Positions 10,974 to 61,294 of a stretch of DNA of 64,000 nucleotides are shown piece after piece. Position 1 is the first letter of the stretch. Each line of letters begins with the position of its first letter. The DNA comes from an uncultured virus (IMG/VR IMGVR_UViG_3300028394_003206). Its lineage: Duplodnaviria > Heunggongvirae > Uroviricota > Caudoviricetes. The stretch lies in IMG/VR virus record IMGVR_UViG_3300028394_003206, one strand, 5' to 3'. The notes below the pieces were generated by a model that ran no database searches, had not been told where the DNA came from, and saw only the letters and a list, made by a program, of their open reading frames with translations. Both the position numbers and the translations under genes were made by a program.

Positions 10974-12152
10974 ATGTTAAGTAAAAAAGTTAAATTATTT
11001 TTAAATTATAATCAACAATTAATATTAGAAACATTATCCAATGAACATAGATTATTGTATAATTTTCTCCTTGAAAAAGTTAAAGATAATCTTGATTTTA
11101 AATCAATTAATGAAAATTATAAACTTTTTAGATTAGCAAATAATTTAACAATTAATAGCAAATCTGCTCAAAATACATCAATTGTTCTTATAAACAATAT
11201 AAAATCTTACTTATCATTAAAGAAAAAAGATAAAACTGCTAGATTTCCTAATAAATTTAAAAGCCATAAGTATTTTACATCTTTTATGCTTGATTATAAC
11301 AATGGATGTGGGGGGTTTAAAATAAAGGATGGGCATTTAGAATTAAATTTAAATAATCCTAAAAATAAAGTCATTTTCAATCTACCAGATTATGTTAACC
11401 ATATTTCAAATGAAAATGTTAAAACTATAACTTTTAAGAAAGAAGATAATGATTATTACTTAATATTTGTTTATCAAGAAGTTAATGAAATTAAAGAATT
11501 AAATAAAGATAACTTTTTAAGTATTGATTTGGGGTATTCTAGGTTATTGACTGGTTCTTCAATGGAAGAAAATATAATTATAAATAATTTTAAACAAAAG
11601 AAATTAAATGGTTATATATCTAAACTACAAGCAAATAGAGATAAATATAAAAAAGGTTCTAGAAAATATAGAAAGATTAATAGTAAATTAAAAAGAAAAA
11701 AATCTAAATTAGTTAATAAACAAAAAGATTTTTTACATAAATCAAGTAAAAAAGTAGTAGATTTTTGTATACAAAATAATATAGGCAAATTAATTGTTGG
11801 TGATATAAATGTAAAATCAATAATTAAAGAAAGTAACTATTTTATAAATGGATTAAGTAAATCAACCTCAAATTTAGGTAGATTTAAAACATTCTTAGAG
11901 TATAAATCCAAGAATGTAGGTATTGAATTTATTTTAGTAAATGAAGCATATACATCTAAAATAAATTGTTTAACAGGAAATATAGAATTTGATAGTTCTT
12001 TAAATAATCGTGAATTTGTTTATGAAAACATTATTATTGATAGAGATATAAATTCATGTATTAATATTTTAAAAAAGTCGGGTTATTGCTTAACCCAAGA
12101 TTCTATAAAGAATCTGTTGTTCAATAAAATGAATGAGTTAAAAGTTTATTAG
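10974..12152 (+). CDS. tnpB: TnpB RNA-guided nuclease (probably IS607-associated)
   Basis: N-terminal KVKLFLN..Q..LYN, SIDLG, DFLHKSS, LIVGD, NEAYTSK, DRDINSCINIL. Confidence 0.92.
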   Translation: MLSKKVKLFLNYNQQLILETLSNEHRLLYNFLLEKVKDNLDFKSINENYKLFRLANNLTINSKSAQNTSIVLINNIKSYLSLKKKDKTARFPNKFKSHKYFTSFMLDYNNGCGGFKIKDGHLELNLNNPKNKVIFNLPDYVNHISNENVKTITFKKEDNDYYLIFVYQEVNEIKELNKDNFLSIDLGYSRLLTGSSMEENIIINNFKQKKLNGYISKLQANRDKYKKGSRKYRKINSKLKRKKSKLVNKQKDFLHKSSKKVVDFCIQNNIGKLIVGDINVKSIIKESNYFINGLSKSTSNLGRFKTFLEYKSKNVGIEFILVNEAYTSKINCLTGNIEFDSSLNNREFVYENIIIDRDINSCINILKKSGYCLTQDSIKNLLFNKMNELKVY

Positions 12153-20000: not shown

Positions 20001-20935
20001 ATATAATCTAAATAATTAGGTGACAATAAATCACATATTCTATAATTTCTTAATACTTTAGGTGAAACATTGAATTCATCAAATGAATGTATGTTTTCAA
20101 ACTTATAATTATTTATTTTATTAAATCTTATATAAATAGTTTTATTAATTCTTTTTTCTAATTCAATACCACAATCATTAAAATACATTTGCCATTTTTT
20201 AAGATAAATCTTTAAATCATTTAAAGTTTTTAAAATTGTATTTCTTTTAATTACTTTATTGAATAAATTAAAAACCCTTAATGTTAACATTAAACCTAAA
20301 TCATCTATTATTTTATTAAGAAATAACTCTGAATCAAAAGTTTTTAAAGAATTTAATCTATTAAACTCTGATGATTTTTCAACCTCATCTATTACATAAT
20401 TTATATCACAAGATGGATTTTCATATATAATCATAGAAACTAAAACATCAATGCTAGAATTTTTTGCCCTTATTTCATGTGGTAATGATTCATAAAATAA
20501 ACTTCTGAAATAATTCATGTGATTAATATTTAGATTTAAACTATCATAGTTATTTAAATATCTAGAATTTTTCCACTTAGTTTTATCAAAAATATCTCTA
20601 ACTTGGTAAAGTTCATATAAATGAGTTAATTCATGTATAAGATTTTTATAAACATTTTTTTTATCTATATTACTTAATGGTATATTTAAATTTATAATAC
20701 AATTATTAAAATCACTTTTTACACACTCTTCGAAATTGATATTCCCACTGTAATAATTATTATTAGTAAAATTTAAAACAATATTTAAAGAGCATTTTAA
20801 AGAGTTATCATTTAAAATAAAATTAATATTAGAATTTACTTTATTATGTAAAATATTATTTATTTTATTTATATTACTATTTAAAACATCAATTATAGTA
20901 TCGGGTATACCATTTTTTTCTAATAAAATTTTCAT
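19997..20935 (-). CDS. Putative zincin metalloprotease
   Basis: LIHELTHLYE (HExxH) with downstream PHEIRA. Confidence 0.6.
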   Translation of the reverse strand: MKILLEKNGIPDTIIDVLNSNINKINNILHNKVNSNINFILNDNSLKCSLNIVLNFTNNNYYSGNINFEECVKSDFNNCIINLNIPLSNIDKKNVYKNLIHELTHLYELYQVRDIFDKTKWKNSRYLNNYDSLNLNINHMNYFRSLFYESLPHEIRAKNSSIDVLVSMIIYENPSCDINYVIDEVEKSSEFNRLNSLKTFDSELFLNKIIDDLGLMLTLRVFNLFNKVIKRNTILKTLNDLKIYLKKWQMYFNDCGIELEKRINKTIYIRFNKINNYKFENIHSFDEFNVSPKVLRNYRICDLLSPNYLDYI

Positions 20936-22773
20936 TATTTTAATAATTCATTCTTCCTAACTTCGGGATCTTTACCAAACCATGTGGTTAAACCACTTTT
21001 ACTAGCATCATCTTTTGTTATCAATGTTAACTGTGGATTATTAATCATTTCTTTATATTCATCATCAACTAATGCACCTAATCCCTTTTTATACTTTATT
21101 TCCCAATTTAACAAGTTTTCTTTTTGGGTAAATTTATCATATTCAGTTTGATTATAAAAAATCAACTTCTTTTTAGTTTTTTTATTAGTTGCTGTTAATA
21201 AAGGTGTTTCTACTTTATAAACCATTTTCATCTCAAATAATTCAGGCCAAAATTTATAAAAGAAATTTATTAATAAAGCTGAAATTGAATTTCCATCTTG
21301 GTCAGCATCAGCTGCTATGAAAATATTACCATATCTTAATGACTTTTTATCAACAGGTTGTCCTAATTTCAAACCAATAGCAGCCATCATATTAACAGCC
21401 TCTGTATTTTGAACCAATTTTTGATTTGTAATTTCAGACACATTTATAAATTTACCTCTTAATGAAAAAGCACCCATTATTTCTGGAACTCTAAACTTTC
21501 TATGTGCAGAACTTGCGCTATCTCCCTCATATAGAAATAGTTGACACTTCATTCTATCTTTTCCTTTAGCATCAATTAACTTTTCAACTTTAATTTTAGA
21601 TAGTTTTTTATTTAATTCTCTTTGTAACTTATTATCTTCAGCATTTTTCTTTTGTTGAATCCAATCTAATATAGAGTTAACAATTTCAGATTTTAATATA
21701 TTTTGTATTAATTTACTAGAAACTTCAAATGTAAATCCAAAATCTTTAGATTCTGTTATCATTTTTTCTTTTGTTTGAGATGAGAATGAAGGATTTATAA
21801 CTGTTGCATCTAGGAAGATAAACATATGATTTTTTATTTCAGATGGTTTTATATCCACTTTATGTTTCTTTAAAAAGAATTCTCTAACTTGTGAAACTAT
21901 TTGATTTGTTATATAATCTAAGTGTGTTCCACCATCATAGGTTTCTGTTGAGTTAACAAAACTAATTTGTTGAAAACCATTATCAGACAATGCAACTCCT
22001 AAAGACCATTTTTTATCTTTTCTAGATTCAAAAAAATATTCATCTTTATAAAATTTAATATAATCCTCAAATGAATTTATTTCTATCAATTTATCATTTA
22101 AATATATTTTCAAATGTGTATTACAAGCAGCTAAATCATAAACTCTTTTTTCAATCATTTTAAAATGATCATTATCTAAACCATCTAAACCAAATTTTTC
22201 ATAATCAGGTTTGAATGTGATTTGAGTGTGATTTGTTTTTGATTTTTTAATAATTGGAGTTGTTCTATCTCTCATATTATTAGAAAATGTTTGTATAAAA
22301 GAATTCTTACCATCACAAGTGCTAACTGTAAATTCTGTTGAGAAAATATTAGTACAAGAACTACCCACACCGTGTGTACCAGCCCAAGTACGATTATCAT
22401 CTTCTGAGAAATTTGATCCAGCTCTCATATTAGAAAAAATCATTTCAGGAATCCATTCATCTTCTATATTTTTAGTTACCTCAATCCCACCATTATCCCA
22501 AACACTTATAATATCATTATCTATATTTATTTTTATTAGATTTAATTTTGAACCATCCCTTTTAGATTCATCAATTGAATTTGTGATTATTTCATCAAAT
22601 AATTTAACAAATGCTGGTATATGTGTTAGAACTTTTTTAGTGATTTTATCATCTTCAAATACCCATTTTTCTATTGTACTTGGCTTTATAGAACCTAAAT
22701 ACATCCCAGGTCTTAATAAGACATGTTCCCTATCTGTTAGTTTTTTATATTTATCTTCAATTTTCTTAGCCAT
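20935..22773 (-). CDS. Type IIA DNA topoisomerase large subunit (T4 gp39+gp60-like)
   Basis: EHVLLRPGMYLGS, DEIITNSIDE, DNGG, GTHGVG, EGDSA, LRGK, DADQDG, KKGLG. Confidence 0.95.
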   Translation of the reverse strand: MAKKIEDKYKKLTDREHVLLRPGMYLGSIKPSTIEKWVFEDDKITKKVLTHIPAFVKLFDEIITNSIDESKRDGSKLNLIKINIDNDIISVWDNGGIEVTKNIEDEWIPEMIFSNMRAGSNFSEDDNRTWAGTHGVGSSCTNIFSTEFTVSTCDGKNSFIQTFSNNMRDRTTPIIKKSKTNHTQITFKPDYEKFGLDGLDNDHFKMIEKRVYDLAACNTHLKIYLNDKLIEINSFEDYIKFYKDEYFFESRKDKKWSLGVALSDNGFQQISFVNSTETYDGGTHLDYITNQIVSQVREFFLKKHKVDIKPSEIKNHMFIFLDATVINPSFSSQTKEKMITESKDFGFTFEVSSKLIQNILKSEIVNSILDWIQQKKNAEDNKLQRELNKKLSKIKVEKLIDAKGKDRMKCQLFLYEGDSASSAHRKFRVPEIMGAFSLRGKFINVSEITNQKLVQNTEAVNMMAAIGLKLGQPVDKKSLRYGNIFIAADADQDGNSISALLINFFYKFWPELFEMKMVYKVETPLLTATNKKTKKKLIFYNQTEYDKFTQKENLLNWEIKYKKGLGALVDDEYKEMINNPQLTLITKDDASKSGLTTWFGKDPEVRKNELLK

Positions 22774-23118: not shown

Positions 23119-23616
23119 TTAAAATTCATCATCATCCCATTCTATTTCTCTAAAAGTTACAAATTCATTAGGATATATTTTATTTATTTTATCAACAAGT
23201 TCTGTTGTTTCATCAATTAGATATTCAAAACCAGGTAGATCTTGGTCATTATATTCTATTATTAAAGCAATTTTATAGACAATTTTAGACGTTTTAATAT
23301 CTTTTAAATCTATCTTAACATTTATATAATCATATTTATATTCATCTTTTTGGTGGTTGAATAAACCATCTATCACACTTATATAATCAAGTTCATATCT
23401 GAAAACTTTATTGTAAATGTATTTGCACATACAATTTATATCATATTTAAAAGTTGCACCTTTGTCAATATATTCAAGTGATAAATCTTTTAAATCTTCA
23501 ATTAAATCCCAATTAATTCTATCTTTAAATAAATTTTCCATTTCATTTTTGGAAATTCCATCTAAATATGATAAAGTTTCATTTAAAAATTCATTATATT
23601 TCTTAATCTTTTTCAT
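23119..23616 (-). CDS. Leader-bearing small acidic protein (KDLxxExxD family)
   Basis: MKKIKKYNEFLNE; similar to 59175..59609. Confidence 0.8.
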   Translation of the reverse strand: MKKIKKYNEFLNETLSYLDGISKNEMENLFKDRINWDLIEDLKDLSLEYIDKGATFKYDINCMCKYIYNKVFRYELDYISVIDGLFNHQKDEYKYDYINVKIDLKDIKTSKIVYKIALIIEYNDQDLPGFEYLIDETTELVDKINKIYPNEFVTFREIEWDDDEF

Positions 23617-24200: not shown

Positions 24201-26384
24201 ATGAATGAAAAAACTATATCTGAATTTTTAAATAATGAGTATAAGGAGTTTGCAATGTATGTTATTGAAAACCGTGCAATACCATCTGTTATAGATTCAT
24301 TTAAATCATCACATAGAAAAATTATTCATGTTTCTAATCAAATATGGAAAACTGGTAGTGAAAAACATTTAAAGGTTTTTCAACTCGTTGGGAAAATAGC
24401 TAGTGATTGCTTACACTATGATAGTGAAGTTTTATTATCAAATGGTGATAAAATTAAAATTGGTGAATGGTTTGATAATTATCCTGATGTTGAATTGGAA
24501 GTTTTATCTATAGATGAAAATGGTGAAATTGTCACTAACAGAGGCTATAATCCTAAATGCTCTCTTCAAAAATATGTTTATGAAATTGAAACTGAAGATG
24601 GTAAAATCCACAAAATGAGTGGAAATCACCAAGTTATGTTAATAGATGGAACTTATAAAAAAGCTTCTGATTTAACTATTGAAGATGAAATAAAAAGTAT
24701 AGATTTATTAAAAAATATTAAGAATATAAATAAAATAGTATTAGAAAAACCAGAATATTATTATGATATATCTGTTGATAATCATCACAATTTCATTATA
24801 AATGATTCAATTGTTGTACACAACTGTTTCTACCACCATGGTGATTGTTTAGAACCTGATACCCAGATAGTTAGGAGTGATAATTCAATTATAACTATAG
24901 GTGAATGGTTTGAAAAATATCCAAATGAAAAGTTTGAATTAATTTCTTATGATGAAGAAACAAAATCTTTTACTACTGGAATTGGACACTCACCAAGAAT
25001 TGGAAGTATAACTGATATTGAATATGAGATAAAAATGGAAGATGATAGTCAATTCAAATGTACTAGAAACCATCCATTTTTAACACAAAGAGGTTGGAAA
25101 ATAGCTGAAGATTTATTAGAAACAGATAGTATTAAAAATATCAATGGTTATCTTAAAATTCAAAAAATATATAAAAATATTTTAGAGGAACCAGAAAAGT
25201 TTTATGATATAACAGTAGACAAATATCACAACTTTGTTATAGGTGAAAAAGCGAAAATTGTTACTCACAACTCTTCTTTATCTGGTGCTGTTATTAATAT
25301 GGCACAAAGATTTAAAAATAATGCACCATTATTAGAAGAGGATGGGCAATTTGGTTCTTTGCGATCACCACAGGCGTCAGCACCTAGGTATATTGGAACA
25401 AGATTATCACCTAATTTCAGATTAATTTATAAGGATTTTGAATTACTTAAATATAAAGAAGAAGAAGGAGAATCAATTGAGCCAGAATATTTTCTACCAA
25501 TTATACCAATGGTTTTAGTTAATGGTTCATCGGGTGTTGCAGTAGGTTTTGCCACTAACATTTTAAATAGAGATGTTAAACCTATTATAGATTGTTGTAT
25601 TAAAATATTAAATGGTAAAGAAATATCTATTGTAAAACCTAGTTCAAATGAATTTAATGGTGAATATATACAAGATCCAGAAAATCATAAAAGGTGGATT
25701 ATAAGAGGGGTTGTTAATAAAGTTAATACATCTACTGTTAGAATAACAGAACTTCCACCATCTATGACATATGAAAAGTATGAAGAAATTCTTGATAAAT
25801 TAGTTGATGATAAATTAATAGTTTCTTATGATGATAATTGCAAAGATAATATTGATTATACTATTAAATTTAATAGATCAGCTTTAGATAAATTAGATCA
25901 ACCAAAATTGATAAAACTTCTTAAATTAGAAGAATATTCAACTGAAAATTTCTCTACTTTAGATCAGTATGGTAAATTAAAAATATTTAATTCTTTTGAA
26001 GAAATTGTTCATTATTTTGTAGATTTTAGATTATCATATTATGATAAAAGAAAACAGTTTTTATTAAATAAACTTAATAAAGAGTTAAAAGTTTTAAGTA
26101 ATAGAGGTAGATTTATTAAAGCTATTTTAGATGAGAAATTAAAAATTAATAATGTAGTAAAATCTGAAATTATTAACCAAATTGAAACAATGAATTTGGA
26201 TAAAATTGATGATAGCTATGATTATCTTTTAAGAATGCCAATCTATTCTTTAACTAGAGAATTGTTTGAGAAATTGAAAGAAGATTTTACAAATAAAAAA
26301 TTAGAAATTGTTGAAGTTGAAGCTAAAGAAGTTAAAGAAATGTATTTAGATGATTTAACAGAATTGAAAAAGAAATTCAAATGA
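24201..26384 (+). CDS. Type IIA DNA topoisomerase medium subunit (T4 gp52-like) with two inteins
   Basis: RAIPSVID, YHHGD, GQFGS..APRY (catalytic Tyr), LVNGSSGVAVGFAT, ITELP; 446 aa after removing inteins. Confidence 0.95.
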   Translation: MNEKTISEFLNNEYKEFAMYVIENRAIPSVIDSFKSSHRKIIHVSNQIWKTGSEKHLKVFQLVGKIASDCLHYDSEVLLSNGDKIKIGEWFDNYPDVELEVLSIDENGEIVTNRGYNPKCSLQKYVYEIETEDGKIHKMSGNHQVMLIDGTYKKASDLTIEDEIKSIDLLKNIKNINKIVLEKPEYYYDISVDNHHNFIINDSIVVHNCFYHHGDCLEPDTQIVRSDNSIITIGEWFEKYPNEKFELISYDEETKSFTTGIGHSPRIGSITDIEYEIKMEDDSQFKCTRNHPFLTQRGWKIAEDLLETDSIKNINGYLKIQKIYKNILEEPEKFYDITVDKYHNFVIGEKAKIVTHNSSLSGAVINMAQRFKNNAPLLEEDGQFGSLRSPQASAPRYIGTRLSPNFRLIYKDFELLKYKEEEGESIEPEYFLPIIPMVLVNGSSGVAVGFATNILNRDVKPIIDCCIKILNGKEISIVKPSSNEFNGEYIQDPENHKRWIIRGVVNKVNTSTVRITELPPSMTYEKYEEILDKLVDDKLIVSYDDNCKDNIDYTIKFNRSALDKLDQPKLIKLLKLEEYSTENFSTLDQYGKLKIFNSFEEIVHYFVDFRLSYYDKRKQFLLNKLNKELKVLSNRGRFIKAILDEKLKINNVVKSEIINQIETMNLDKIDDSYDYLLRMPIYSLTRELFEKLKEDFTNKKLEIVEVEAKEVKEMYLDDLTELKKKFK
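24408..24824 (+). mobile_element. Mini-intein 1 (139 aa)
   Basis: Starts CLHYD, block B SGNH, block F YDISV, ends VVHN followed by Cys. Confidence 0.92.
24846..25271 (+). mobile_element. Mini-intein 2 (142 aa)
   Basis: Starts CLEPDT, block B TRNHPF, block F YDITV, ends VTHN followed by Ser. Confidence 0.92.
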
Positions 26385-41613: not shown

Positions 41614-43101
41614 ATGGCAACTCAAAGTTACTTTACAGTAAGAATGAATGGTGTTAACGTTTTCTATCAAACAGGGACAGTTACACAAGCAACACAATCT
41701 GGAACACAATCTGGAACAACTTTAAATACAAGCATTTTTGCAGTATGGAATGCAGACACTTCTGGTGCATCATTAGATTCTAATATTTTCCGTGTGTATA
41801 ATGGTGATAATGTTAATGATTCATCAGGAAATGCACAAAATGGAACAAATGTAGGTTCTGTAACATTTACTACTGGTAAAGTAGGAAATGCTTTTACTTT
41901 TAATGGTAGTAACTATGTGCAATTACCAAACAATTCATTAAACTCATTAACTGGAGATTTTAGTATATCTTTTTGGATGAACTTACAAGGTGTTGGTGTA
42001 GATAATCAAATGCCCATTTCTTCATTCTATTATGATGGGGCTAATTTTTATGGTTTTTATGCATTTATTTCATCATCTACCTTATACTTTAGAATATTTA
42101 ATGGTTCCTCTAACTCAGCAATAAATGAATTATCAACAGGTATTGGTCCATATTATTACAATTGGACACATTTTACATTATTAAGAAAAGGTTCTACTAG
42201 CAGTAAAATATACATTAATGGTTCCCTTGTAACTTCAAATACCAACACAACAAACCCAGTCTATAGTAATAGCACAACACCATCAATAGGTGCTGCAAAA
42301 TGGGGGGGAACTACTGCTTATTATATGAGTAATACTGGTAAAATTGATTCATTGACAATTTGGAATAAAACATTAACAGATGGTGAAGTTGTTGAATTAT
42401 ATAATGCTGGTGTGGGAACAGAATACCCATTTACATCACAAACATTACCAACACCAAATGATTCAGTTGGGACAAACCATGGTGTTTTAACAAATGGCAC
42501 AACATTCACCAATGGTAAAATAGGTAGAGCATTTACATTTGATGGTGTTAATGATTATATTGCATTACCGAACAATTCAATTAATGTTACTGGTGATTTC
42601 TCAATTTCTGGATGGGTTTATATACCTAGTGGGTATGTAGGTGGGAACCAAATTTATATTTTAGATAATATAAGTGCAAATACATGGTATAATAATCCTA
42701 ATGGATATGCATTATCCACATATGGAAATAGTATTCAATTTGACTTATGTAACAATACTAACACCAATCTTACATTAATTTACAGTTATGGAGGTGGTGG
42801 ATTCCCAACTAATGCTTGGTATCATATTGTAGCAACCAGAAAATCAGGAGTTGGTAGTAAAATATATTTAAATGGTTCATTAGTTGCTTCAGATAGTAAC
42901 ACTGTAAACCATACCCATTTAGCAACAGTTTCAAAACCATGTATTGGTGCATTAGATATACCAGCAAGAGGTTCTGTTGGGTATTTCCCACCAGCAAATA
43001 CAAGAATTGATGCTGTTACACTGTGGAATAAAGAATTAACGTCAACCGAAATCACCGAACTATACAATTCTGGAACAGGTAAACAATACCCTTATTCATA
43101 A
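41614..43101 (+). CDS. LamG/concanavalin-A-like two-domain protein, copy A (probable virion surface protein)
   Basis: GKVGNAFTFNG, FSISFW, KIYINGSL, IDSLTIWNK.L...E...LYN. Confidence 0.85.
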   Translation: MATQSYFTVRMNGVNVFYQTGTVTQATQSGTQSGTTLNTSIFAVWNADTSGASLDSNIFRVYNGDNVNDSSGNAQNGTNVGSVTFTTGKVGNAFTFNGSNYVQLPNNSLNSLTGDFSISFWMNLQGVGVDNQMPISSFYYDGANFYGFYAFISSSTLYFRIFNGSSNSAINELSTGIGPYYYNWTHFTLLRKGSTSSKIYINGSLVTSNTNTTNPVYSNSTTPSIGAAKWGGTTAYYMSNTGKIDSLTIWNKTLTDGEVVELYNAGVGTEYPFTSQTLPTPNDSVGTNHGVLTNGTTFTNGKIGRAFTFDGVNDYIALPNNSINVTGDFSISGWVYIPSGYVGGNQIYILDNISANTWYNNPNGYALSTYGNSIQFDLCNNTNTNLTLIYSYGGGGFPTNAWYHIVATRKSGVGSKIYLNGSLVASDSNTVNHTHLATVSKPCIGALDIPARGSVGYFPPANTRIDAVTLWNKELTSTEITELYNSGTGKQYPYS

Positions 43102-59174: not shown

Positions 59175-59609
59175 TTACCAAGCAACTAATTTTATATCTG
59201 GATAGATTTCTATTATTTTATTTATTAATTCATCACTTTCTTTTTTTAAATGATTACTATCTCCAGTTATATAAAAATTATATACTAAATTTTCTTTTTT
59301 AACATATTGTAAATCTTCAGGATATTTATTAAATAAATGATTATAATTTGAAGAATTATAACCTTTTGTGAACATACTATCATAAATCAATATATGTTTT
59401 GAATTTTTAAAAAATGAAAAATTAATATCATAAGAACCTACGGGAGGCAGCAGTGAGTAAACATAGCTATGCAAATAGAAATTTTCATCTTTGTCAAAAT
59501 ATTCAAACTCAAATAAATCTTTAACAGTTTCAATTAATTCAAAATCTATAACATTGTCTAAATATTTTTTAACATCATTAAAATCTTCATATAATTTAAT
59601 ATACTTCAT
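59175..59609 (-). CDS. Leader-bearing small acidic protein (paralog of 23119) containing a 16S rRNA-matching segment
   Basis: MKYIKLYEDF; LIETVKDL..EY.DK; ELINKI.EIYP. Confidence 0.8.
   Translation of the reverse strand: MKYIKLYEDFNDVKKYLDNVIDFELIETVKDLFEFEYFDKDENFYLHSYVYSLLPPVGSYDINFSFFKNSKHILIYDSMFTKGYNSSNYNHLFNKYPEDLQYVKKENLVYNFYITGDSNHLKKESDELINKIIEIYPDIKLVAW
59437..59457 (+). other. 21-nt sequence matching conserved bacterial 16S rRNA (341F site plus TGAG)
   Basis: CCTACGGGAGGCAGCAGTGAG, GC-rich island in AT-rich DNA. Confidence 0.9.
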
Positions 59610-59805: not shown

Positions 59806-59835
59806 AAAAAGCCTCATAAAAATATGAGGCTTTTT
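59804..59835. terminator. Terminator of LamG copy B
   Basis: AAAAAAAGCCTCATA-AAAA-TATGAGGCTTTTT. Confidence 0.85.
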
Positions 59836-59851
59836 AATTATTTAAAATTAT

Positions 59852-61294
59852 TTATGAATAAGGGTATTGTTTACCAGTTCCAGAATTGTAAAGATCAGTT
59901 ACTTCAGTTGATGATAATTCTTTATTCCATAATGAAACAGCATCAATTCTTGAATTTGCTGTTGCAAAGTAACCAACAGAACCTCTTGCTGGTATATCTA
60001 ATGCACCAATACATGGTTTTGAAACTGTTGCTAAATGGGTATGGTTTACAGTGTTACTATCTGATGCAACTAATGAACCATTTAAATATATTTTACTACC
60101 AACTCCTGATTTTCTGGTTGCTACAATATGATACCATGTATTTGTAGGAAATCCCGGTCCATAATTATAAGTTAATGTAAGATTGGTGTTAGTATTGTTA
60201 CATAAATCAAATAAAATACTATTTCCATATGTGGATAATGCATATCCATTAGGATTATTAAACCATGTATTTGCACTTATATTATCTAAAATATAAATTT
60301 GGTTTCCACCCATATATCCGCTAGGGATATAAACCCATCCAGAAATTGAGAAATCACCAGTAATATTAATTGAATTATTTGGTAATGCAACATAATCATT
60401 AACACCATCAAATGTAAATGCTTTTCCTATTTTACCTGTTGTGAATGTTGTACCATTTGTCAATGTTCCATGGTTTGAACCATAGCCATCATTAGATGAA
60501 GGTGTTAATATTGAAACTGAACTAGGATAAGTAGCTTCATAACCAGTTCCTGAATTATATAATGCAATAACTTCATTTAAAGATAAAGCTTTATTCCATA
60601 TTGAAGTTCCGTCAATTAAACCATAAAAGAAGTAAGTTGCAGTAGCATATCTACCAATATAAAAATTATTAGTCCCATTAGCACCCCAAGTTAAAGCAGA
60701 ACCATTTTGACTAGATTCTAATTCACCATTTATATAAATTTTATAAGTAGTTCCATCATAAGTAACTGCTATATTATACCATGTATTTGCAGCTAATGCC
60801 GTAACAGAAGCCATAAATGATGTATTATATTCTAAATAAACTTTATTATTAGATGAAACATATAATCTAAAACCATTAGAAGTATTAGAACAATCACTCA
60901 TAATAGTTCTAATAGCACCAGTTGCAGTTAAATTGATCCAAGTATTTATTGAGAAAGAACCAGTTGGTTTAAATCCATCAACCGGCAAAGTAATTATAGT
61001 GCTTGAACCATTAAATGAAAAAGCATTACCAAATTTACCAGTAGCATATGTTAAATTTGAACCTGTTCCAGTGTTAGAACCAATTATATCTGTTGTATTG
61101 GAATTTCCATTCCAAGCACTGGTTAAACTAGTGTTTAATGTTGTTACAGTTGCTGGTATATCACCATTCCAAACACCAAATATACTAGTATTTAATGTTG
61201 TTCCTGATTGAGTTGCTCCTTGTGTTATAGTCCCTGTTTGGTAGAACATATTAACACCATTCATTCTTACTGTAAAGTAACTTTGAGTTGCCAT
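59852..61294 (-). CDS. LamG/concanavalin-A-like two-domain protein, copy B
   Basis: Near-identical N-terminus and second LamG domain to copy A; first LamG domain divergent. Confidence 0.85.
   Translation of the reverse strand: MATQSYFTVRMNGVNMFYQTGTITQGATQSGTTLNTSIFGVWNGDIPATVTTLNTSLTSAWNGNSNTTDIIGSNTGTGSNLTYATGKFGNAFSFNGSSTIITLPVDGFKPTGSFSINTWINLTATGAIRTIMSDCSNTSNGFRLYVSSNNKVYLEYNTSFMASVTALAANTWYNIAVTYDGTTYKIYINGELESSQNGSALTWGANGTNNFYIGRYATATYFFYGLIDGTSIWNKALSLNEVIALYNSGTGYEATYPSSVSILTPSSNDGYGSNHGTLTNGTTFTTGKIGKAFTFDGVNDYVALPNNSINITGDFSISGWVYIPSGYMGGNQIYILDNISANTWFNNPNGYALSTYGNSILFDLCNNTNTNLTLTYNYGPGFPTNTWYHIVATRKSGVGSKIYLNGSLVASDSNTVNHTHLATVSKPCIGALDIPARGSVGYFATANSRIDAVSLWNKELSSTEVTDLYNSGTGKQYPYS

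Follow-up and report, generated by a model that had tools for sequence, protein, structure and literature searches.

A 21-nt 16S rRNA sequence lying antisense and in frame within a phage gene: a probable capture of host sequence

A 16S rRNA sequence inside a phage coding sequence

We analyzed a 64,000-nt stretch of DNA from an uncultured virus (IMG/VR record IMGVR_UViG_3300028394_003206), referred to here in its entirety as the window. A minus-strand gene at 59175–59609 encodes a 144-amino-acid protein, P0001, which belongs to an unnamed megaphage protein family and has no Pfam match. On the opposite, plus strand, positions 59437–59457 match 16S rRNA exactly and in the rRNA sense over 21 nt, comprising the site of primer 341F followed by TGAG; the mRNA of the gene carries this 21-mer antisense to 16S at nucleotides 153–173. 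Within the gene, the tract takes in codons 52–57 together with the final base of codon 51 and two bases of codon 58; it is not codon-aligned, yet the frame is kept and the coding strand reads Y-SLLPPVG. The first-pass annotation had described an exact, frame-preserving 16S 21-mer lying antisense in a phage gene and read as (Y)SLLPPVG, and the sequence match, the open reading frame and the chance estimates given below bear it out. We take the 21-mer to correspond approximately to 16S positions 341–361 in E. coli numbering and to overlap the EUB338 probe over 15 of 18 nt. Its first 17 nt agree with 341F as printed in the accessible part of PMC10241881, as had been proposed; the accessible part of PMC5478537 names the EUB338 probe and does not give its sequence.

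The 21-mer is identical to five fetched 16S loci. Identity to one rare 16S variant (L045/L051) extends over 24 nt (59437–59460, plus strand), the longest match to any 16S gene that we fetched, and this variant is also the only exact match to the 22-mer among 185,579 GTDB genomes. Within the 64-kb window, the first 17 nt match at a single place when up to three mismatches are allowed, and none of 100 shuffled controls contains such a match. Under Markov models of orders 0–4, the expected count per 64-kb window is 1e-8 to 3e-10 for the 17-mer and 2e-11 to 3e-13 for the 21-mer. The codons are as unusual as the match: among 18,930 seven-codon windows from 83 open reading frames, the four lowest-scoring are those at the 21-mer, both overall and for synonymous choice. 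The tract had also been called a GC-rich island, which holds insofar as its G+C exceeds that of its flanks (17% and 20%, with 24% for the window), but the elevation is mild, as other 21-mers in conserved genes reach 13–14 G+C.

Large sequence collections provide a measure of how often such a site arises by coincidence. The 17-mer preceded by two A/T bases occurs at 42 loci in JGI metagenomes, 33 of them 16S genes; the other 9 are non-rRNA loci with flanks of 36–69% G+C, and the continuation as 16S is found at 0 of 9. A degenerate 341F scan of IMG/VR returned 23 loci, of which 2 are rRNA-derived and 21 (some of them duplicates) are non-rRNA, lie in DNA of 46–75% G+C and never continue as 16S. 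Chance 17-mers thus exist, but neither in AT-rich DNA nor with a 16S continuation: no such locus falls below 36% G+C or runs on for four more 16S bases, as the 21-mer does. The 21-mer is 16S sequence, and its origin lies beyond chance.

The carrier gene, its protein family and its phage

As a lone query, P0001 retrieves only itself. A search with a four-row profile found 14 family proteins, and a profile that excludes P0001 still recognizes it at E 1.5e-12; its relatives are 22–35% identical to it. Fold searches gave no match at E 0.001 (best Z 5.2), and all atlas matches to P0001 score below 0.9. More broadly, the family defines an unnamed megaphage domain of about 120 amino acids (23119–23616 and 59175–59609 in the window, P0003–P0014, L049, L050 and L056) that occurs by itself or in fusions, frequently as several copies in one genome, and has no Pfam or clear fold match.

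The structure model of P0001 (pLDDT 74, from an alignment of 7 sequences) predicts a strand at residues 43–51, a poorly predicted loop to residue 71 (pLDDT below 50 at 55–69) and a further strand at 72–80. The variable loop, codons 52–71 (59397–59456, minus strand), begins with the seven residues SLLPPVG, directly after the first strand. Two conserved anchors enclose 41 residues in P0001 versus 24–38 in all 13 relatives, the longest span of the 14 in a loop that is hypervariable, and the family profile treats 7 residues of P0001 in the interval from position 46 to 55 as inserted, with low posteriors. On the predicted fold and this profile, SLLPPVG lengthens a tolerant, length-variable loop at its beginning. 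The paralog P0002 (165 aa; 23119–23616, minus strand) lacks the peptide, as the first-pass annotation stated, but at 28% identity it cannot by itself place the insertion.

Searches of IMG/VR, JGI metagenomes, 1.84 billion representatives, a phage collection and three related records found no close ortholog of P0001 and hence none with an empty site, so the borders of the insertion are not fixed. Codons 44–51, adjoining the 21-mer, are also somewhat rare and contain a 10-bp palindrome (59462–59471), which may be a snap-back scar left by the insertion or else chance. The inserted sequence may accordingly reach some codons past the 21-mer on the palindrome side, and in the alignment a 14-codon insertion fits plausibly beside the 7-codon one. 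We also considered a longer rRNA-derived insert in which the right flank would represent 16S from position 113 on, and rejected it because controls score equally often: 153 of 300 control 30-mers from the window and 181 of 300 shuffles are as rRNA-like. IMG/VR contains no exact copy of this flank, and the window offers nothing nearer than 6 mismatches elsewhere. Upstream of the gene lies a bidirectional terminator-like hairpin (59806–59835), and promoter scans gave background-level scores.

Products of the window presumably include gyrase-like, DnaK-like and ClpP-like proteins, and it also encodes NusG, OmpH and bifunctional-nuclease proteins. Across 50,697 phage records, only LR756502.1 (642 kb) and LR745206.1 (635 kb) match a neighboring protein; identity is 62–64%, and both genomes have gene blocks in common with the window. 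According to the accessible part of PMC7162821, its largest genomes, including ones of 634 and 642 kb that agree in size with these two, belong to Mahaphage, and replication in Bacteroidetes is predicted for them. From the neighboring gene and the common blocks, we infer that the carrier is a Mahaphage-like megaphage. LR756502.1 and LR745206.1 resemble the window in encoding the same protein family, in their AT-rich genomes and in having few Shine-Dalgarno motifs, which precede 2 of the 83 open reading frames here; unlike the window, they have neither the 21-mer site nor a significant rRNA piece, and the term rRNA is absent from the accessible main text of PMC7162821.

A Bacteroidota host is suggested mainly by the predicted hosts of these relatives and the near-absence of Shine-Dalgarno motifs. 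The TGAG continuation, offered previously as a clue to the host, is compatible with Bacteroidota but not diagnostic, which makes it a weak clue. We sampled 201 genomes, with or without a 16S gene, from the phylum to which a MAG titled Proteobacteria is assigned; 3 have a 16S gene with TGAG, and two of these genes are 81–84% like a proteobacterial 16S and 69–75% like Bacteroidota-like ones. By signature, we take the 16S loci L002 and L051 to be Bacteroidota. A MAG of that title (G002) contains two very different 16S genes (L045/L051 and L052–L053), one of them Bacteroidota-like, and is probably mis-binned.

Several other features of the window were noted in passing. A topoisomerase A-like gene (24201–26384, plus strand), divergent from its B-like subunit at 20935–22773, contains what appear by eye to be two tandem mini-inteins (C-L/C-F to H-N). 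Two genes for TnpB-like transposon nucleases, likewise recognized by eye, lie at 9–788 and 10974–12152 (plus strand). Paralogous double LamG-domain genes at 41614–43101 (plus strand) and 59852–61294 (minus strand) are near-identical in parts, and additional copies of the LamG gene fragment and collapse the run X1 contigs in that region.

Capture of host sequence or laboratory chimera

The explanation that we favor, with a probability of roughly 60%, is that the 21-mer is a real, lineage-private and probably neutral capture of host rDNA or rRNA sequence during repair. Phage DNA undergoing repair or recombination in an infected cell would have been patched with a short piece of the host 16S gene, or with DNA copied from 16S rRNA, through end joining or template switching. 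The insert could owe its survival to a length of 21 nt, which leaves the frame intact, and to a position where a surface loop of freely varying length begins. The match to a donor over 21–24 nt is exact, and the codon composition is foreign to the recipient gene, as expected of a captured insertion; isolated phages, moreover, do hold rRNA-derived pieces, which we count in favor of capture. That the donor was a TGAG-type 16S, that repair was the route and that the insert is neutral are each likely rather than observed.

The junctions offer a partial view of how such a joining might have proceeded. The left border has no microhomology, the right border is uncertain with the palindrome alongside, and the 21-mer has no flanking repeat. 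The accessible part of 10.1101/2022.03.14.484287 describes bacterial enzymes, among them group II intron-like reverse transcriptases, that anneal at microhomologies and generate snap-back products. Short templated or captured insertions made by microhomology-mediated end joining resemble this one in their short foreign tract, collinear DNA, small palindrome and possible template switch. They differ in that the donor here has rRNA sequence, the left border lacks microhomology, no responsible enzyme was identified in the phage and the borders are unproven; an RVT_1 reverse transcriptase was found in 0 of 2 relatives. An attachment site or CRISPR spacer was considered and set aside, since the locus has no tRNA, no Rfam match and no flanking repeat.

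A real and neutral capture would represent a dated footprint of host-to-phage sequence transfer at the scale of an oligonucleotide. It would also caution that viral DNA can contain the target of a universal primer or probe.

Capture and chimera had been posed as the rival explanations at the outset, and they proved to be the right pair. Under the second, phage DNA became linked to the end of a 341F-primed amplicon, or to a primer product, and assembly carried this join into the contig. We consider this unlikely, while noting that the left edge of the 21-mer coincides exactly with the 5′ end of the primer. That coincidence is partly an observer effect, as readers recognize tracts that hold a whole primer. 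The exact stretch was found in one freshwater run only, which may be the source sample, and in no RNA data set; in that run no contig across 58000–59805 was displayed, under a filter that can hide records, and neither junction was seen in reads. An estimate based on the word share of 0.95 gives 0.43 for an absent 21-mer and 0.23 for one that is present, an approximately 1.9-fold lean toward artifact that is too weak to discriminate and ignores other causes of missing words.

Amplicon-like chimeras do occur in viral contigs. One example (L001:575–622) is a 16S piece of about 45 nt at the end of a viral contig, adjoining non-rRNA sequence, and looks like an amplicon or assembly chimera. It begins at or near a primer 5′ end, as does the 21-mer, but it lies at a contig end and continues into 16S, whereas the 21-mer is internal, with two junctions and the reading frame kept. 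A chimera would be expected to show a single junction, a contig end or a broken gene; here the open reading frame is intact and collinear, and an artifact would need two junctions that together restore it. No second internal insertion of this kind appeared in AT-rich DNA among the 42 metagenome and 23 IMG/VR loci.

Coverage and protein clustering point the same way. Exactly matching contigs nearby have depths of 38–44, so a chimera could have prevailed in the assembly only against some 40 molecules. A single member sequence represents P0001 on 3 contigs, as many as for its paralog P0002 and for P0012, and the longest contig of P0012, which is listed from both JGI and Logan, equals that of P0001 in length (116,346); this argument assumes that the contigs of P0001 are those of P0012, and all three may come from one sample. 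Protein searches covering the relevant lengths found no shorter P0001 allele and no C-terminal fragment of at least 79 aa. The single sequence on three contigs and the lack of an empty allele among predicted proteins favor capture, and this indirect evidence leads us to infer that the 21-mer exists in the phage population, and not just in the assembly.

Pairing with 16S rRNA and rRNA look-alikes in other phages

The orientation of the 21-mer raises the question of an antisense role. In this scenario, which we regard as doubtful, the phage mRNA would pair with host 16S or pre-16S rRNA near helix 14 and the strand that follows; equally doubtful is the proposed consequence, that small-subunit assembly would be disturbed or ribosomes tethered to or paused on this mRNA. 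The coding strand holds a perfect 21-bp complement, the computed duplex with TGAG-type 16S reaches about −51 kcal/mol including flanks, the site is predicted to be partly unpaired in the mRNA, and the TGAG type fits the predicted host phylum. Pairing of the mRNA with 16S, as previously suggested, is therefore possible on paper, but any exact complement yields such a duplex energy, and mature subunits keep the target base-paired or buried.

Conservation does not lend this scenario support. With up to three mismatches allowed, the 21-mer is absent from 3 of 3 related records, which are distant and one of which is a fragment. The two complete relatives contain rRNA matches at chance level only (E 1.6 for whole 16S and E 0.07 for 23S). 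Compared with two 16S genes, one 23S and one 5S, the window contains no further exact rRNA match longer than 15 nt, and the 21-mer does not recur outside true rRNA genes in IMG/VR or the phage collection. That distant relatives are without the site is a lack of support rather than an absence of function.

The first-pass annotation had also flagged an off-target primer site. The window contains no 805R site at up to three mismatches, so no V3–V4 amplicon would arise from it, which weakens this concern. Taken with the relatives that lack the site and the broken helix 14 described below, the missing second primer site means that nothing supports a function. Were the element functional, a phage mRNA pairing with the inside of 16S would constitute a route of translation control for which our literature search found no report. 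That search, based on title listings and covering few subscription papers, returned nothing relevant to 21-mers of this type or to phage rRNA look-alikes.

When phage records were queried with whole rRNA genes, segments resembling 16S rRNA emerged in other phages, and several seem to retain a structure. Five isolated phages, the Serratia phages Muldoon, PS2, 4S and SP1 and the Cronobacter phage VP8, contain a 37–40-nt copy of 16S helix 11 (model positions 241–280; L065–L069:1499–1538) at 86–97% identity. This piece lies between a gene end and tRNA-Gly, in the sense of the flanking genes and within a conserved stretch of about 100 nt, and its stem carries paired changes in PS2 and 4S; from its sequence, it looks like a structured, rRNA-mimicking RNA. 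Close to the genome end of the Streptomyces phage Omar, a region without annotation contains a 118-nt miniature 16S 5′ domain (L071:550–667; model positions 106–311 with the middle removed), whose score of 62–68 bits exceeds the Rfam SSU threshold. In two IMG/VR contigs, the 530 loop, which includes the 515F site, sits mid-contig on new, non-rRNA stems (L073:287–330 and L075, approximately 301–318).

These precedents bear on a further possibility, that the 21-mer is a remnant or relocated rRNA look-alike RNA transcribed in the rRNA sense from the plus strand across the gene. Known phage elements of this kind (helix 11, the Omar 5′ domain and the 530 loops of L073 and L075) and a small GCAA-loop hairpin that follows the 21-mer on the plus strand speak for it. 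We nonetheless judge it improbable: helix 14 is left with 2 of 4 pairs, the plus strand folds no better than shuffles (z 0.31), there is no Rfam SSU match at E up to 10, the right-hand flank is no more rRNA-like than the controls above, and the piece lies within a gene coding on the opposite strand. Conservation among related phages, which such an element would be expected to show, was found in none of the three distant records. The structured look-alikes in the Muldoonvirus phages, Serratia phage 4S, Omar, L073 and L075 resemble the 21-mer in deriving from conserved regions of rRNA. They are longer (25–118 nt), keep or rebuild their helix, lie outside genes where annotation exists and are common to relatives, whereas the 21-mer is antisense, coding and private, and breaks its helix. 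Because the 16S look-alikes keep or rebuild structure and the 21-mer does not, it falls outside that group.

One could still imagine the 21-mer as the antisense counterpart of a habit among phages of holding rRNA pieces (helix 11, the mini 5′ domain, the 530 loop and 23S positions of about 1040–1080), with a coding mRNA that uses a frame-neutral, 21-nt anti-16S guide to bind host small-subunit rRNA at a universally conserved site; we think this a long shot. Least probable of all is that phage coding sequence converged on a well-known primer site by chance, for although 17-mers arise in large collections (the 9 and 21 non-rRNA loci above) and scanning many windows meets many recognizable motifs, the expectation of 2e-11 or less per window, the G+C and 16S continuation that set the site apart from those loci, its codons, the rarest stretch of the window, and a loop that is the longest in its family all speak against it.

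Beyond 16S, a 32–36-nt piece of 23S rRNA (query positions 1041–1077, which we take to be the L11-binding region) occurs at 89–97% identity in seven phages, XacN1, Milchi, GAP32, CBB, Aeromonas phage 4_4572, pf16 and UNO-G1W1, mostly outside annotated genes. Matches in a Yersinia phage (E 2) and Acinetobacter phages (E 3) were discarded as chance-level. Those structured look-alikes that reside in isolated, culturable phages are directly testable and constitute a stronger lead than the 21-mer. The genome of Omar additionally contains a type II hammerhead ribozyme at L071:1717–1781.
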